64,000 nucleotides of DNA from Chloroflexota bacterium (GTDB lineage Bacteria; Chloroflexota; UBA6077; CF-72), in NCBI GenBank assembly GCA_035309865.1, contig DATGER010000134.1:5331-69330 (forward strand), written 5' to 3'. The position numbers and the translations under genes are program-made. Below are positions 4,972 through 26,813 of this stretch, one piece after another. Below the pieces are notes generated by a model. The model was not told the origin of the DNA. It was given only the letters and a program-made list of their open reading frames with translations, and made no database searches. How positions within the stretch are numbered: position 1 is the first letter of the stretch; each line of letters starts with the position of its first letter.

Positions 4972-5816
4972 ACGTTGAAGACGCCGATGCCGCGATAGCG
5001 GTGTGCGCGTTGCACAAGGAGGTCGTCGATGTCGACGCCGTCCAGGGCCGCGAGTTGGGCGACCAACGCTTTTTGGAGCGCTTGCGCGGTGGCGGCGTGA
5101 TCGGTGTGCGCGCCCTCGGGCGGCTCGGGAATGATGGCGTCGATGATGCCGAAGCCGAGCAGGTCGGGCGCGGTGATCTTCAAGGCCTCGGCCGCCTCCG
5201 GGCCGCGCGCGCCGTCATTCCAGAGAATGCTGGCGGCGGCCTCCGGCGAGGCGACCGAATAGATCGCGTTTTCGAGCATCAGAACGCGGTCCGCGAGCCC
5301 GAGGGCGAGCGCGCCACCCGAGCCGCCCTCGCCGACGATGACGCTGACGATCGGGGTCCGCAGACGGCTCATCGCCAGCAAGTTCTCGGCAATCGAAAAG
5401 GCCTGACCCCGTTCCTCGGCGACCAGCGACGGGTCGGCGCCGGGGATGTCGATCAGGGTGATCACCGGGATGCCAAACTTCTCGGCGTGGCGCATGAATC
5501 GCAGCGCCTTGCGATGGCCTTCGGGCCGCGTCATGCCGAAGCGGCGCAGCATGTTCTCTCTGGTGTCGTGGCCCTTCTGATGACCGATGACCATCACCGT
5601 GCGTTGCTCGAGCACTGCCAGGCCGCCGACGATGGCCGCGTCGTCGCCGAACAGGCGATCGCCGTGGAGCTCGAGGAAGTCCGAAAAAGCGAGTTGCAGA
5701 TAGTCGAGCGTGTACGGTCGCTGCGGGTGGCGAGCCAGTTTGACTCGCTCCCAGGCCCCCCGCCGCGGCGCGTCCTGAGGCTTGAGTTTTAGCCGCACCG
5801 GCCCGTTCCGGCTCAT
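4968..5816 (-). CDS. accA: Acetyl-CoA carboxylase carboxyltransferase subunit alpha
   Basis: RHPQRPYTLDY..., VMVIGHQKG..., GEGGSGGALA motifs. Directly downstream of accD with a 4-nt overlap. Confidence 0.9.
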   Translation of the reverse strand: MSRNGPVRLKLKPQDAPRRGAWERVKLARHPQRPYTLDYLQLAFSDFLELHGDRLFGDDAAIVGGLAVLEQRTVMVIGHQKGHDTRENMLRRFGMTRPEGHRKALRFMRHAEKFGIPVITLIDIPGADPSLVAEERGQAFSIAENLLAMSRLRTPIVSVIVGEGGSGGALALGLADRVLMLENAIYSVASPEAAASILWNDGARGPEAAEALKITAPDLLGFGIIDAIIPEPPEGAHTDHAATAQALQKALVAQLAALDGVDIDDLLVQRAHRYRGIGVFNV

Positions 5817-22275: not shown

Positions 22276-22662
22276 CGGTCGGGCGGACCGGCGTCCGCGG
22301 CCGCTCTGTCGTTCACGTGCGGACCACGGACCGCATCGACCAGCAAGCGGAAGCTCTCAACGCTGCCGCGTGTTGCTCGCGGGATTAGATGATCGTCATT
22401 CGCGACTGTGGGTAACGACGGTTTGGCAGGCTTCAGTGGTGACGGCGATGGTGGGACGGAAAGGATCGTCGGGCTAAATCCTCCGCTTCGGGATCGCGAA
22501 CAGACCAAGGAGCCGTCAGGCCAATGACCCTGAGTCTGCGCGACCCCAGCGAGATGGTCGACGCAAAGGATTCAGGTCAGCCACGTGCTCCCAGCACGTC
22601 TCACGGAAGCCGAAGTTGACCACGCCGAATCGCACCGGCGCTAAAACGCGCCCTGGTTCGTG

Positions 22663-23517
22663 TCAAGCGGCCGCCTGACACGCGGCGAGTGCCGCCTGCG
22701 CGTCGGCCAGGCGCTGTGCGTCAGTTACCGCGTTCTCAATCAACCCCTGCGCTTCCGTCAACAACGCTTGCGCGTTAGCCGCAAGCCCGCTCGCCAGCCC
22801 GTTCGAGGCCGTTGTCGACAGGGCAAACTGCTGGTTGAGCTCCTGCACCCCGAGGCCCTGTGCCCATGCCTGGGCGGCTGCGGCGTACGCACCGCCGTCG
22901 ATTGATGGATCCTGATACATCGCGCTGAGCTGGGTGAGGTCACGCGCTATTTGCGTTGCAAGGGGAGTGAGCTCGGGCGCCATGCCTGCCAGGATGGTCG
23001 ACAGGTTCTGGATTTGATCGAGCATTCCGCTGACAACAGCGTTGTCTGCTATGAGCTGAGCCGCGACGGTATCCGCCCTGGCTTGAAGCACGTCGCAGCT
23101 GGCGGTGACGCACACTCCATTCACGCAGGTCTGGTTCTGACTCGACTGGCAGCAGGTGTCCCCACAGCACGTGCTCCCGGCTGGACAGCAAGCCCCGCCG
23201 TTCGCCAACCCGTTGCCGTGCGCACTGGGGCAGCACACGTCGTCCGGGCCGCAACACACCGCGAGGCCACAACACACCGACTGCGGACCGTTGTTGAAGC
23301 AGCAGTGGACATCGCCTGGACAGCAGTGGGTGGAGCCAGCACTGCAGCACTTGCCGTTGGAACACGTTCCTCGGTCGCCGCAATCGGCCGCGTGAACGGT
23401 TCGTGGAAACGCGGAGAACATACTGGCGGCGACAACGCCCAGCGTGATCCGGAGTGCCCGGTGACGTGGCATTGGCCCCGCGAGGGCGCGTGAGAACTCA
23501 TCGAACAGAACGCTCAT
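22663..23517 (-). CDS. Secreted cysteine-rich (granulin-like CC-repeat) protein with an Ala/Gln/Leu-rich helical C-terminal domain
   Basis: Signal-like N-terminus (...RHRALRITLGVVAASMFSAFPRTVHA/ADCG). Residues 46-141 hold 23 Cys including nine CC doublets (C-x5-C-x4-CC-x6-CC-x5-CC-x8-CC-x4-CC-x5-CC-x13-CC-x5-CC-x3-CC-x7-C-x4-C-x4-C, with THCCPGD). A ~140-aa low-complexity helical tail follows, ending ACQAAA. ATGA overlap with the upstream gene; an alternative start is 23472. Confidence 0.7.
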   Translation of the reverse strand: MSVLFDEFSRALAGPMPRHRALRITLGVVAASMFSAFPRTVHAADCGDRGTCSNGKCCSAGSTHCCPGDVHCCFNNGPQSVCCGLAVCCGPDDVCCPSAHGNGLANGGACCPAGSTCCGDTCCQSSQNQTCVNGVCVTASCDVLQARADTVAAQLIADNAVVSGMLDQIQNLSTILAGMAPELTPLATQIARDLTQLSAMYQDPSIDGGAYAAAAQAWAQGLGVQELNQQFALSTTASNGLASGLAANAQALLTEAQGLIENAVTDAQRLADAQAALAACQAAA

Positions 23518-24605
23518 ACCGTGGCTCGAACCACAGGCGGATGTTGCATGGATTTCACGGCGTTGGACTGGCGCACGGTTTGCGTAAACAGACCGCGCAG
23601 CTCGTCAGCGCCGGCAACGACCGGGCTTGCAATCAGCCCATCTGCTCCGATGAGCACCGCGCTCGGCGTGCCAGCGTACTGGAAGATCGTGGCCACCTCC
23701 CGGTCCTTCTGCAGCAACACCTGACTCAGCCCGTATTCACGAGCTTTTTCGCGATTGACCTCGATGTCACCACTGCTGATCAGAACGATGTTGAGTTTGC
23801 TCGATTGTTCACGTTGCCATCGTGCGACCTCCGGCAGCAGCGCCTTACAGGGGCCGCAGCCGGGATCTGAGAACACCAGCAGCAGCGGCCGACTCGACTC
23901 CAGCAAGGCGCGCAGGGTGACAGACCCACCGGTTAGCCGCGGCAGCGCAAAGTCGGGCGCCTGGCTGCCTATCGCAAGCCCAGCGTGCGACCCGTTTGCC
24001 GCACGGCTAGCCGACGCGGGCGTGCCGATCGAAGCCTCCAGAGCTTCGAGCCGCAGGAGCAGCCGTCCTTGCTGGGAGGTGAGGTTGAGGAGCAACCAGC
24101 CCTCCACAAGGATGAGTCCGATCGCTACCACGACGACGGCCGCGGACACCCACACCAGCGGCGTCAGACCTGCCAGCCACAGGCCCGCGTCGAGCCCGGG
24201 CCCCTGCCAGACGATCACGCCGGCCGCGCCTGCCAGCACGCCGTTGCGTACCAGCGTGGACCATTCGACGGGTGCCGAATGCAGGAGCCCGAAACAGTGG
24301 CAGTCAGGGTGTTTCCCGCGCACCAGGTTGAGACCGATAGCAGCGGCAAATACACCCAGCAGCACGAGCGCACCTGCGCCGGCCCAGCGCGCCGACACGT
24401 TCGCGAGCAGACCGACAGCGACACCCAGCTCTGCAATGGGTAAGCCCCATGCAAGTACGCCGACCAACCAGCCGTCAACGCCAAACTGTCGGAGCGCATG
24501 GCGAGCACCGCTCGGATCCATGAGTTTGGTCGCCCCGGCGACGGCAAACACGACGGCCAGGAGAAGCCTGGCAACCAGCACGCCCTCAAGCATGGAAATG
24601 CTCAC
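23514..24605 (-). CDS. MauE/DoxX-family membrane redox protein fused to a TlpA/MauD-like thioredoxin domain
   Basis: The N-terminal ~135 aa have 4 TM helices and HPDCHCFG (the MauE C-x-C-x-G motif). An extra TM and a coiled segment follow. The C-terminal domain carries APDFALP...LLVFSDPGCGPCKALLPE (CxxC thioredoxin fold). Confidence 0.8.
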   Translation of the reverse strand: MSISMLEGVLVARLLLAVVFAVAGATKLMDPSGARHALRQFGVDGWLVGVLAWGLPIAELGVAVGLLANVSARWAGAGALVLLGVFAAAIGLNLVRGKHPDCHCFGLLHSAPVEWSTLVRNGVLAGAAGVIVWQGPGLDAGLWLAGLTPLVWVSAAVVVVAIGLILVEGWLLLNLTSQQGRLLLRLEALEASIGTPASASRAANGSHAGLAIGSQAPDFALPRLTGGSVTLRALLESSRPLLLVFSDPGCGPCKALLPEVARWQREQSSKLNIVLISSGDIEVNREKAREYGLSQVLLQKDREVATIFQYAGTPSAVLIGADGLIASPVVAGADELRGLFTQTVRQSNAVKSMQHPPVVRATV

Positions 24606-24614
24606 GTCGGGTGC

Positions 24615-25559
24615 TCAATGGACAGTGCGGAGATAGGCGTCAATGGCTCTGAGCTCATCATCACTCCACGTGGCCGAAAACTGGGGCCAGGGCATCATGT
24701 CAGGCGGCAACTGGACTCCGGACGGGTCTGTGCCAGTGCGGATCGTGTTGACAAACTGATCCGTCGACCAGGTTGCCACCAGTGCCACCAGCGACGGACC
24801 GCGTGGCACAAAGGTATTTGTGCCGCCAGTCAGGTTTTGCCCGTGGCACGTGCGGCAGCCCGAGATGTTCAAAAGATACTCGCCATATGTCGCTGTCACC
24901 GCTGCCGGCGGTGCCACCACCGGCGCGGTGGTCGGCGTTTGCGCCGTCATCGGGAGTGCGCCGAAGGCGCCCAGGACTGCTCCCAGCAGGTGCAGCTGAG
25001 TCGGGACGGCAGTGCGTGCGACTGGCGGTTGTGATCGCAGGTACGTGACCAGCGACTGCACATCATCATCCGACATCAGGTGAAAGGTCTCGGCAGGCAT
25101 GATCAACAGCGATCGTCCGTCGGGTGCCACGCCGTCGCGCACCGCGCGAACAATGTCACCGTCGGACCAGCCGGCCAGCGGCCCGGCCGGTGTCAGGTTC
25201 GGTGCGTACAACGTGGCCAGCGGCCCGAGAAAGTCCTCGTTACCGCCGCCGAGCGGGAGTTGTTGCGTCGTCGCATGGCATCCGGAACACAGGTTGGCGA
25301 GATGCTGGCCGCGTGCGAGTCGCTCCGGGCTGGCGGCAATCGGCTGTGTTGCGGCTGGGATGGAGGGCGGACGCTCGAAGCGGTAGACGCCAATCAGCGC
25401 CAGAATCGCCACCAGCGCGAGCACGACGGTTCCCAGCGCCAGAGCGCCGGCGCCGAGCCAACGCAGCACGGCCCCACGCACTCGCCAGGCGCGCGTGGCG
25501 AACCAACCGCCCAGCACGGCTCCGACGAGCAGCCCGGAGATACTGAGGACCAGATCCAT
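24615..25559 (-). CDS. Membrane-anchored diheme c-type cytochrome
   Basis: Two heme motifs, CSGCH and CRTCH, each followed by a distal Met-containing segment (LLIMPAE, DMMPWPQ). N-terminal TM helices. Start moved to ATG 25559 (MDLVLSISG) to avoid overlapping the cupin gene. It resembles the cytochrome c subunits of membrane dehydrogenases. Confidence 0.8.
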   Translation of the reverse strand: MDLVLSISGLLVGAVLGGWFATRAWRVRGAVLRWLGAGALALGTVVLALVAILALIGVYRFERPPSIPAATQPIAASPERLARGQHLANLCSGCHATTQQLPLGGGNEDFLGPLATLYAPNLTPAGPLAGWSDGDIVRAVRDGVAPDGRSLLIMPAETFHLMSDDDVQSLVTYLRSQPPVARTAVPTQLHLLGAVLGAFGALPMTAQTPTTAPVVAPPAAVTATYGEYLLNISGCRTCHGQNLTGGTNTFVPRGPSLVALVATWSTDQFVNTIRTGTDPSGVQLPPDMMPWPQFSATWSDDELRAIDAYLRTVH

Positions 25560-25569
25560 GGGAGTGAGG

Positions 25570-26085
25570 TCAGGACGCTCGCGCGGCCGGCGCACGAACC
25601 TCGATCGGCGGACCTAGCAGTCGACTCCCGTGGTGAGTTCCAATCCTGCCGAGTATTGCCAGGTCTGGCGGACCGTCGAGCTGGTCGAAATACTGTTGCC
25701 GCTCGGCGAAGAATTCTTCGATGCCGCTGGGGACGGCCACGCTGAGCAGGCGGGTCGCGCTCCCGCTCGCATTGGCAAACGCGTGTGGAGTCCCGCGCGG
25801 TATCCACACAAAGGATCCAGTGGTGACCTCGCGCTCTTCGTCACCGAGCTGTACGACGAGTGTCCCTTCGAGCACGTAAAAGGCCTCGTCCATTTCCCCG
25901 TGGAGGTGCAGCGGCGGCCCAGATTGCCAGGGCGCGAGAGTGTCCTGAAAAACACTGAGCAGTCCGGCGGTGTCGGTGGCGTCGGCCTTGACGCCGGGCG
26001 AGACGGTCGGGTTGCGACGAACGTCGCCAGGGGCGAGCACGTAGGCCTGGGCGCGATGGTCGGTGGGGTGCAAAGCGTCGGTCAT
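25570..26085 (-). CDS. Cupin domain protein
   Basis: PPLHLHGEMDEAFYVLEG...WIPRGTPHAF is the two-motif cupin signature. It is the first gene of the four-gene minus-strand cluster. Confidence 0.8.
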   Translation of the reverse strand: MTDALHPTDHRAQAYVLAPGDVRRNPTVSPGVKADATDTAGLLSVFQDTLAPWQSGPPLHLHGEMDEAFYVLEGTLVVQLGDEEREVTTGSFVWIPRGTPHAFANASGSATRLLSVAVPSGIEEFFAERQQYFDQLDGPPDLAILGRIGTHHGSRLLGPPIEVRAPAARAS

Positions 26086-26099
26086 GCCGCGGTTCCCTT

Positions 26100-26146
26100 T
26101 CGTAGACGATATATATTGAGTAGATGTAGACTATATCTGGTAGACT
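26100..26146. promoter_or_regulatory. AT-rich divergent promoter/operator region with GTAGAC repeats
   Basis: 71-nt intergenic region between the cupin (-) and TetR (+) starts. GTAGAC occurs at 26102, 26126 and 26140, GTAGAT at 26120, interspersed with TATATAT / TATATCT. The AT richness stands out sharply in a ~70% GC context. Confidence 0.5.
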
Positions 26147-26156
26147 GAGGCTGTCA

Positions 26157-26813
26157 ATGACCACGCAGACGTGGCGCCGGCGCCAGGCGCTCGAAACGCG
26201 ACGTCAGATCGTCCGCGCCGCCCGCCGCCTGTTTGTCAGCCTCGGCTACGTCGGTACGACCGTCGAGGCGATCGCCGCCGAAGCCGGCGTCGCGGTCCCC
26301 ACCGTGTACAAGGCGTTCGGTACCAAAGCCGCGATCGCGCGCGAACTCAACGACCTGATCGACGAGGAAGCCGGTGTCGCCGCATACACCCAGCGCGTCG
26401 CGCTGGCCAGCCAACCGACGGAGCTGATCGCCGCGGCCGTCGCGTTGAACCTGAGCCTGCATGAACACTGCGGGGACATCATCGAGGCGACCCGCGCAGG
26501 CGCGGCCGTCGACGCTACGCTCGCGCACGTCTACGCCGAAGGCACGCGCCGGCATGACGACGGCATGCGCTCGCTGATCGACAGTCTCCAGGCGTCGGGC
26601 GCGCTCCGCGCTGAGCTGGAACCGGTCCAGGCGGTCGGGTTGCTGTCCAGTCTGTGCGCGCCGGAGGTATTCGCCGAGTTGACCCGCCGCCACGGCTGGA
26701 CCGTGCACAACTGCGAGGCCTGGACGGTCGAAGCGCTGTGCTGGCTGCTGCTGAGACCCGTCGCAACCCGTCGTCATCGGAGCCCGGCTACCCAGCCGCG
26801 GACTGCGCGGTGA
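26157..26813 (+). CDS. TetR/AcrR family transcriptional regulator
   Basis: The N-terminal HTH RRQIVRAARRLFVSLGYVGTTVEAIAAEAGVAVPTVYKAFGTK is a classic TetR_N signature. Confidence 0.9.
   Translation: MTTQTWRRRQALETRRQIVRAARRLFVSLGYVGTTVEAIAAEAGVAVPTVYKAFGTKAAIARELNDLIDEEAGVAAYTQRVALASQPTELIAAAVALNLSLHEHCGDIIEATRAGAAVDATLAHVYAEGTRRHDDGMRSLIDSLQASGALRAELEPVQAVGLLSSLCAPEVFAELTRRHGWTVHNCEAWTVEALCWLLLRPVATRRHRSPATQPRTAR

Follow-up and report, generated by a model that had tools for sequence, protein, structure and literature searches.

Which protein does a MauE-type membrane enzyme serve when it is encoded away from the genes of methylamine metabolism and fused to its thioredoxin-like partner? 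MauE has only lately been recognized as a third major disulfide-forming membrane enzyme and, to our knowledge, its one known natural client is methylamine dehydrogenase's small subunit. The question is raised by a locus of a Chloroflexota bacterium that lies in a stretch of 64,000 nucleotides (nt), hereafter called the window, covering positions 5,331 to 69,330 of contig DATGER010000134.1 (assembly GCA_035309865.1). At positions 22663 to 26085 of the window, four minus-strand genes follow one another in the order cupin, dihaem cytochrome c, MauE-thioredoxin fusion and Cys-rich exported protein.

Our main finding is that the fused enzyme and the Cys-rich protein form a pair whose counterparts, with a common type of leader on the Cys-rich partner, recur across phyla, and that the cupin and the cytochrome c, which travel with the gene of a TetR-family regulator, constitute a module separable from that pair. 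A first-pass annotation, made from the letters of the sequence, had proposed that all four genes make up one dedicated oxidative-folding operon; its gene identities were borne out by profile searches, which gave Cupin_2, Cytochrome_CBB3, MauE and AhpC-TSA matches.

The fused enzyme and its cysteine-rich client

The fusion gene (23514-24605; all genes and domains described here are on the minus strand, except for the TetR gene) encodes 363 residues in which a MauE part and a MauD part are colinear, as seen in alignments to the two Paracoccus proteins. Residues 13-128 share 40% identity with MauE (E = 7e-11), and residues 159-325 share 30% identity with residues 13-161 of MauD (E = 2e-16), an alignment that covers both the membrane anchor and the juxtamembrane linker of MauD. 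The MauE membrane core (residues 9-133; 24207-24581) matched the Pfam MauE family (PF07291) at E = 3.9e-29, with 102 bits against a cut-off of 27. It holds an HPDCHCFG motif, of which the C102-H-C104-F-G codons are at 24288-24302, in a loop between the hydrophobic segments 72-98 and 115-134. The central residue of this CXC loop is His in 89 of 94 relatives; a recent preprint on MauE reports mostly Gly or Ala (bioRxiv 10.64898/2026.03.05.709764).

A fifth transmembrane segment (24081-24167) was recognized by hydropathy, and since the MauD alignment spans the N-terminal anchor of MauD, this segment is the equivalent of that anchor. It is followed by a Q-x-G-R…R linker (residues 177-190) and then by a thioredoxin domain of the MauD/ResA/TlpA type (residues 207-332; 23610-23987), which matched AhpC-TSA over residues 212-326 (E = 8.7e-10) and whose CGPC codons are at 23847-23858. 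Among 46 fusions, K27, E59, C102, C104, F105 and G106 are invariant in the MauE part, and so are G180, R181, R185, C250, P252, C253 and the T313-P314 loop in the MauD part; K27 and E59 correspond to the conserved Lys of helix 1 and Glu of helix 2 that are features of MauE.

Judged by its sequence, the thioredoxin part is MauD-like and is no MauD equivalog: the equivalog model (NCBIfam TIGR02661) gave 47.3 bits, below its cut-off of 188.6 (E = 1.6e-12). The closest solved relative of the domain is ResA, whose model also matches. The architecture is nevertheless that of MauD, with an anchor, a linker and a CxxC thioredoxin fold placed between the MauE part and the client. When ten Paracoccus Mau proteins were compared with the window by tblastn (E ≤ 1e-3), Mau proteins other than MauD had no match, and the mauA, mauB and mauG genes of a methylamine dehydrogenase cluster were not found in its 64 kb. 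Because the MauD model scores far below its cut-off and no other mau gene is present in the window, we read the locus as a MauE/MauD-type module outside methylamine metabolism.

The last gene (22663-23517) encodes 284 residues, 24 of them Cys, and belongs to no Pfam or NCBIfam family; granulin and other named Cys-rich domains were considered and dropped, with no match at E ≤ 0.01 in either database. Its leader, FDEFSRALAGPMPRHRALRI…VHA (residues 1-43; 23389-23517), precedes a Cys-rich domain (residues 46-141; 23095-23382) with 23 Cys, mostly in CC pairs. The 23 Cys in 96 residues counted at first pass are exactly these, and one more is found at position 280. A C-terminal helical-bundle domain (residues 141-283; 22669-23097) is bracketed by Cys141 and Cys280. 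The AlphaFold model shows short beta-hairpins in the Cys-rich domain, with a predicted local distance difference test score (pLDDT) of 48-77, and five helices in residues 141-283, with a pLDDT of about 76-95, mostly around 90. Neither a sequence search of the PDB nor Foldseek on this model retrieved anything other than generic helical bundles for the C-terminal domain (best E = 0.18).

Every Cys of the Cys-rich domain is invariant among the four closest family members. The family is rare, with three relatives among 5.8 billion clustered proteins, 11 HMMER matches at E ≤ 1e-10 among 1.84 billion representatives and, in a metagenome scan, a single contig, identical to the window. The helical domain, together with both bracketing Cys, also occurs in three secreted proteins that have no Cys-rich domain (P0130, P0131 and P0169). 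These are Thr-rich proteins with the helical domain at their end and ordinary signal peptides, and the context of one of them (L168) has no MauE nearby. Because the domain and its bracketing Cys are thus found behind ordinary signal peptides, the sequence of the client agrees with a location outside the cytoplasm and with as many as 12 disulfides.

The leader of related clients has the form FDxLTKxLA…SRRxxLK, and relatives of the window client bear SRRRALK or PMPRRRAL. From this motif and from the basic residues found in the c-region of 62 of 66 leaders (clients and MauA together), client leaders are predicted to be export signals resembling the twin-arginine type. One client passes the model of twin-arginine translocation (Tat) signals, with 20.7 against 16.7, and another falls just under it at 14.9. 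The signal peptide noticed at first pass therefore stands as an export leader, of a different type: it is long and of the twin-arginine kind, with R-H-R replacing RR.

These leaders resemble those of MauA, methylamine dehydrogenase's small subunit. The full MauA precursor in PDB entry 3c75 starts MLGNFRFDDMVEKLSRRVAGRTSRRGAIG, and F-[DE]-x-hydrophobic lies inside the first 20 residues of 86 of 117 MauA precursors. A client-leader profile was made from 18 leaders picked by cysteine content and adjacency alone; the N-region of the window leader scores 17.3 bits when the profile comes from other clients. Full MauA leaders reach 13.7 bits in the median; composition-matched shuffles reach -0.8 in the median and 12.3 at most. 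For the part that precedes the arginines, the median is 4.4 bits against -1.0 for shuffles, and 48% of the leaders exceed the 99th percentile of the shuffles. We consider the resemblance real but modest: it would support a shared client type and is no proof of common descent. A search for mau clusters on plasmids returned Streptomyces MauE-like matches only.

Enzyme-client pairing across genomes

Relatives of the fusion number 277 in a collection with one genome per species, mainly in Chloroflexota and further in Actinomycetota, Verrucomicrobiota, Acidobacteriota, Alphaproteobacteria and Nitrospirota. The number of thioredoxin domains per protein ranges from one to four and is most often two. 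At three loci of close relatives (L083:2994-4072, L259:4953-5820 and L260:6721-7359), the MauE and thioredoxin parts were called as separate or truncated genes, for which either sequencing frameshifts or a real split could account; two of these contigs may come from long-read assemblies.

The linkage is seen within the narrow family of the window client. A gene that encodes a MauE-thioredoxin fusion, or that ends in a thioredoxin domain, lies directly upstream of all six Cys-rich members with genomic context (the window, L083, L081, L082, L167 and L169), so that no client homolog without MauE or thioredoxin was found among them. Independence from the window lineage holds for three of the six, L081, L082 and L167; the L169 client, 100% identical to that of the window, does not count as a separate case.

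The pairing extends beyond this family. In a forward test on 77 MauE-thioredoxin loci, open reading frames (ORFs) counted as Cys-rich when they had 100 residues or more, with 12 or more Cys and a Cys share of at least 7%. Their density fell from 4.16 per 10 kb in the first 500 bp around the enzyme gene to 0.44 per 10 kb at 500-2000 bp and 0.16 per 10 kb at 2-6 kb, and was about 10 to 26 times higher next to the enzyme gene than farther off. An adjacent Cys-rich ORF was found at 26 of the 77 loci, a few being alternative-frame artefacts, and nearly all adjacent ORFs were co-directional and leader-bearing. At control loci with TlpA-like thioredoxins only, a Cys-rich neighbor occurred in 0 of 76.

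The reverse test started from the leader. A DNA pattern for [FL]D-x-h-x-R-x-L-A-x-P-M-P-R, and for this motif only, was found at 89 places, about 15 of which are expected by chance. In the 80 blocks read, the motif stood at the start of an ORF in 58 cases, and 54 of these 58 ORFs were Cys-rich. A MauE-thioredoxin gene shared the 8-kb block with 26 of the leader ORFs, and a further 12 adjoined a gene for a single-anchor di-thioredoxin, which brings the leader ORFs with a partner to 38 of 58. Such di-thioredoxins share the anchor and the QQGRLLLRLD linker with the fusions and have no MauE. Other conserved neighbors, such as Tat components, CcdA/DsbD or proteases, did not emerge when the 1537 ORFs of 162 loci were clustered all against all.

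Six MauE-less genes next to PMPRR-leader Cys-rich genes are L187:1955-2998, L191:4561-5712, L242:2708-3805, L182:3544-4656, L177:650-1795 and L195:982-1971; their products have a single N-terminal anchor, the QQGRLLLRLD linker and two thioredoxin domains, the first with CGFC and the second with CGPC. Hosts of the MauE-less form are Proteobacteria, Acidobacteriota, Planctomycetota and Armatimonadota.

The claim made at first pass that MauE and MauD functions are fused and tied to the adjacent Cys-rich protein is thus supported by the six family contexts and by the forward and reverse tests. The stronger claim, that the fusion is a private machine for one substrate, stands for the dedicated pairing and fails for the privacy, given several leader genes per MauE-thioredoxin gene and the enzyme genes, weighed below, that have no adjacent client. 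Because several contigs bear three to five leader-bearing genes each, we conclude, on the sequence of these contigs, that the MauE-thioredoxin enzyme serves a class of clients, one private substrate being too narrow a description.

Clients elsewhere differ widely in size and family. At other loci some of them match Stig1 or MXAN_6577-like families, and P0125 has a weak Stig1 match. A locus of Verrucomicrobiae (L096:3649-5694) encodes a client of 681 residues and 111 Cys with a Hint/intein-like end (Hint E = 2.5e-8, and an intein C-terminal motif), which suggests that it may be self-processing. Two clients in tandem, one of 662 residues with 123 Cys and the other of 687 residues with 124 Cys, come after one three-thioredoxin MauE fusion (L119:8082-10070 and an ORF about 2.4 kb downstream), and match MXAN_6577-like and Stig1 families. 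In a Chloroflexia genome, an ORF with a TatA-like segment (L003:5065-5817) lies between a large Cys-rich leader gene and a MauE-thioredoxin gene. Uncultured actinomycetes have multiple PMPRR-leader Cys-rich genes per contig, some of them in tandem, on CAVWIV010000007.1 (L197, L215, L224 and L238), CAVPLG010000001.1 (L217, L218 and L245) and CAVTWR010000021.1 (L204 and L208); a large ATPase/LuxR-type regulator, noted with these contigs, recurs in 15 loci.

The transcription unit and the cupin-cytochrome module

The close packing of the four genes described at first pass was confirmed in full, with 10 nt between cupin and cytochrome, 9 nt between cytochrome and fusion, and an ATGA stop/start overlap of fusion and client at 23514-23517. 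So was the divergent TetR gene (26157-26813, plus strand; TetR_N, E = 3e-13) behind a repeat region: of the 20 GTCTAC copies in the window, three fall in the 71-nt spacer between TetR and cupin (26086-26156), where they take up 44 nt (26102-26107, 26126-26131 and 26140-26145). On the minus strand, a -35/-10 match spanning 26157-26130 (TTGACA-16-TATAGT, 11 of 12 positions) is the sole promoter-like site in a scan of 22300-26400, which found none between the cytochrome and fusion genes. Both L083 and L087 keep the spacer core, TTGACAGCCT.AGTCTACCAG, without change. Because the promoter-like site is confined to the spacer, whose core is kept in these relatives, the four genes are most simply predicted to be one TetR-controlled transcription unit. 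A terminator-like hairpin inside the fusion gene (24556-24572) was dismissed, as shuffles yield 2.3 such sites.

The cupin (25570-26085; 171 residues; Cupin_2, E = 9.8e-18) is a single-domain cytoplasmic protein that has 0 Cys and neither a signal peptide nor a hydrophobic segment. Among solved structures, quercetin 2,3-dioxygenases come closest to it (E about 3e-15). In Bacillus subtilis, a TetR-type regulator that responds to flavonoids is paired with a quercetin dioxygenase, and the divergent TetR and quercetinase-like cupin of the window (25570-26813) recall that pair; the inducer of the operon may be a phenolic compound.

The cytochrome gene (24615-25559) encodes 314 residues from an ATG; an alternative GTG start at 25595 would add 12 residues, and homologs and the charge pattern of the anchor favor the ATG. 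Two haem-binding motifs, CSGCH and CRTCH, and matches to Cytochrome_CBB3 (PF13442, E = 2e-14) and PF00034 (E = 1.8e-11) identify it as a dihaem c-type cytochrome, held by a two-helix anchor made of two N-terminal hydrophobic segments. Among solved structures, it comes closest to the cytochrome c subunits that serve quinone-reducing alcohol, fructose and glucose dehydrogenases (E = 4e-17 to 1.5e-12). Those subunits have three haems and work with a catalytic dehydrogenase subunit, whereas the window protein has two haems and its two-helix anchor, and no dehydrogenase gene adjoins it.

The four-gene order recurs in three close relatives (L083, L259 and L260). Elsewhere, the two halves of the locus come apart. 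In the 6 kb around MauE-thioredoxin at 81 other loci, we found neither homologs of three window proteins (cupin, cytochrome and TetR) nor any further credible protein with CxxCH. In L087, an 89%-identical cytochrome stands with TetR and cupin and is followed by an unrelated gene, without MauE-thioredoxin or client. In L167, the MauE fusion has two thioredoxin domains and precedes a client of the window's Cys-rich family; a TetR gene is divergent from it, and cupin and cytochrome are missing. The window TetR shares 84-86% identity with its counterparts in L087 and L083, and 42% (E = 5e-43) with the one that flanks the enzyme-client pair of L167. Cupin and cytochrome are thus a module separable from MauE-thioredoxin and client, one that travels with TetR; the common TetR suggests co-regulation rather than a shared mechanism, and any role of the cytochrome may be specific to the window lineage. 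Five of six more distant cytochrome contexts have unrelated neighbors, without MauE or DoxX. The other, in an alphaproteobacterium (L084:4947-6575), has, inside a cluster for cytochrome oxidase assembly (SURF1, CtaG, CoxC), a 43%-identical cytochrome whose gene immediately precedes that of a DoxX-family membrane protein; it is the sole link of the cytochrome family to the DoxX/MauE superfamily seen outside the window lineage.

Known systems, the proposed relay and its rivals

The closest precedent is the mau cluster of Paracoccus (L261), with the order mauB-mauE-mauD-mauA-mauC-mauJ-mauG. It has the same two helpers in the same order, directly before a Cys-rich exported client, MauA, which is small, has 12 Cys in 6 disulfides, and bears a leader of the form FDDxVEKxSRRVAGxTSRR. 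In the window, by contrast, E and D are one polypeptide, the motifs are CHC instead of CGC and CGPC instead of CPVC, the client is unrelated to MauA in sequence, and mauB, C, G, F, J, M and N are absent from the 64 kb. An oxidoreductase pair encoded beside the protein that it serves is also known from DsbL/DsbI, which adjoin their arylsulfate sulfotransferase client; there, the proteins served contain one disulfide or a few and bear Sec signals, and the enzymes belong to protein families other than those of the window fusion.

On the enzyme itself, a preprint of March 2026 reports that two MauE proteins, from Caldithrix and Desulfatibacillum, replace DsbB in E. coli via their CXC motif, that MauE is marked by CXC then FG, by a Lys in the first transmembrane helix and by a Glu in the second, and that 8.2% of MauE entries carry a fused thioredoxin-family domain (bioRxiv 10.64898/2026.03.05.709764). 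The window fusion shares the CXC-FG motif, the Lys, the Glu and the fused thioredoxin domain. The proteins studied there differ, being stand-alone MauE that act on E. coli DsbA and are presented as generalists, and gene neighborhoods, Cys-rich clients, leaders or Tat are not discussed. The same preprint draws the parallel with DsbB/DsbA and with VKOR-thioredoxin fusions, which likewise combine a four-helix quinone-linked core, an extra transmembrane helix and a thioredoxin on the side of the active loop. The parity of transmembrane segments in the window fusion agrees with this parallel. The likeness is one of architecture; the window thioredoxin is of the ResA/TlpA/MauD type, with up to four copies in relatives. 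Finally, decRiPPter (2020, PMC7794033) found Streptomyces clusters in which mauE and mauD homologs lie by precursors with at least 8 Cys, which they were proposed to modify. These are again MauE/MauD homologs outside methylotrophy beside a Cys-rich product gene, but the products are short predicted precursor peptides, whereas clients of the window type have 100-700 residues, a twin-arginine-type leader and fused enzymes.

The system had been thought undescribed at first pass. That no longer applies to MauE-thioredoxin fusions and DsbB-like MauE, published in 2026, or to Cys-rich neighbors, published in 2020. In the literature searched, we found no colinear E-D-client arrangement, no shared MauA-like leader, no two-way Cys-rich linkage across phyla, no MauE-less di-thioredoxin variant and no conflict over MauE topology.

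On the precedent of MauE, MauD and MauA, together with the complementation data of the preprint, we propose a relay from client thiols to CGPC, then to CHC, then to quinone. The thioredoxin domain would take electrons from the Cys of the client, forming up to 12 disulfides that it probably also reshuffles, and would hand them to the CHC pair of MauE, which would pass them on to membrane quinone. The parts of the relay would be the four-helix MauE core with its K27/E59 pair and CHC loop, and the MauD anchor, linker and CGPC fold; those of the client would be a leader like that of MauA, a hairpin stack with 22 Cys and a helix bundle that one further pair of Cys closes. We think it reasonably probable that the locus is a TetR-controlled unit of two modules, with cupin and cytochrome in one module and the MauE-MauD relay with its client in the other, and that the relay forms the client disulfides. 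Domain identity, MauE/MauD colinearity, gene order and the conserved gene pair with its leader are observed; from these we infer the oxidizing direction, the quinone acceptor and the side of the membrane, of which the extracytoplasmic one appears more likely.

Several observations weigh against this proposal. A CGPC motif in a ResA/TlpA-type fold is typical of reductants over oxidants. About two thirds of MauE-thioredoxin genes, at the 77 loci of the forward test, have no adjacent Cys-rich gene. Four related contigs of this lineage keep the cytochrome gene just 9 nt upstream of the fusion. The window leader reads P-R-H-R-A-L-R, without consecutive arginines, and does not match the Tat signal model TIGR01409. 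The charge of the loops also points the other way. By the parity of the transmembrane segments, the CXC loop and the thioredoxin domain are on one side of the membrane, and in 101 fusions that side (the loop between helices 1 and 2, the CXC loop and the linker after the fifth segment) has 9.1 Lys plus Arg, against 1.3 on the other. Canonical Paracoccus MauE (L261:4778-5957 locus) has 12 against 2 in the same orientation, and MauD and six single-anchor di-thioredoxins have 0 Lys or Arg before the anchor and 2-3 after it. Read by the positive-inside rule, which correctly puts the haem domains of the neighboring cytochrome outside, this bias would make the shared side the cytoplasm, which is not where the client would end up. 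The earlier expectation that CGPC and client face one compartment outside the cell is thus less than secure: CXC and CGPC share a side by parity, and the charges speak for that side being the cytoplasm.

If the charges are right, the relay would oxidize and fold the Cys-rich precursor inside the cell, possibly docking on the conserved FDxLxxxLA of the leader, and Tat would then export it already disulfide-bonded. The same would apply to the classical modules: MauE and MauD would act on the cytoplasmic face and all FDxL…RR clients, MauA included, would leave the cell folded. Such a scheme would explain why both MauA and the clients have twin-arginine leaders, with basic c-regions and one pass of the Tat model, and would leave the conserved N-region of the leader exposed to the cytoplasm; it would also be nature's parallel to the engineered systems that couple disulfide formation in the cytoplasm to Tat export. 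We nevertheless hold it to be possible rather than expected, for this locus as for MauE/MauD modules at large. The two MauE proteins that complement an E. coli dsbB deletion have a CXC loop that TOPCONS places in the periplasm, in conflict with the charge bias seen here (bioRxiv 10.64898/2026.03.05.709764). In addition, the charge rule is empirical, the cytoplasm is reducing, studied thioredoxins of the ResA/TlpA/CcmG type are generally extracytoplasmic, and the window leader has R-H-R instead of RR.

The other rivals concern what the fusion does with its electrons or what the client binds. A reductive role, in which the fusion would reshuffle the client Cys or keep them reduced, or would reduce the CxxCH of an apocytochrome as ResA and CcmG do, draws on the classical reducing motif CGPC, on the matches to ResA and MauD models, on the c-type cytochrome gene directly upstream and on an earlier study, cited in the preprint, that proposed MauE as a reductase. 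It seems unlikely to us, since MauE has no known route of electron import and replaced the oxidase DsbB in two assays, and since MauE-thioredoxin accompanies Cys-rich proteins and no cytochromes elsewhere, the cytochrome of L087 having no fusion beside it. The comparative data also bear on the proposal of the first-pass annotation that the membrane dihaem cytochrome c is a dedicated electron sink replacing quinone. The tight spacing without an intervening promoter-like site and the four-gene order kept in three relatives would suit it, and so would the DoxX-family neighbor of one distant homolog; moreover, the closest solved relatives of the cytochrome carry electrons to quinone. As a general rule it is contradicted by the 81 other loci without a cytochrome homolog or CxxCH protein within 6 kb, by L087 with the cytochrome and without the pair, by L167 with the pair and without the cytochrome, and by the five of six more distant cytochrome contexts that have neither MauE nor DoxX; we judge it distinctly improbable. 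Least probable of all, in our view, is that the client is a metal- or cluster-binding Tat substrate, akin to metallothioneins or copper-storage proteins, whose thiols the fusion would protect or load. Twin-arginine-type leaders are typical of cofactor-containing proteins, and the weak Foldseek matches to helical bundles include copper-storage proteins (E about 0.5), but these matches are not significant and are confined to the Cys-free helical domain, and the CC-pair hairpins, the Cys141/Cys280 bracket and the six structural disulfides of MauA favor disulfides.

With disulfide formation by the MauE-MauD relay as the preferred account, the locus and its relatives point to a class of exported clients with up to about 120 Cys and a MauA-like leader, encoded beside fused MauE-MauD enzymes in Chloroflexota, Actinomycetota, Verrucomicrobiota, Acidobacteriota, Proteobacteria and Planctomycetota. 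They sharpen the old puzzle of why the disulfide-rich MauA bears a twin-arginine leader, and turn it into a question of orientation: whether the CXC loop and the thioredoxin domain look into the cytoplasm or out of it. They also offer matched enzyme-substrate pairs for the study of how dense disulfide patterns form, and such pairs could help to produce disulfide-knotted proteins.

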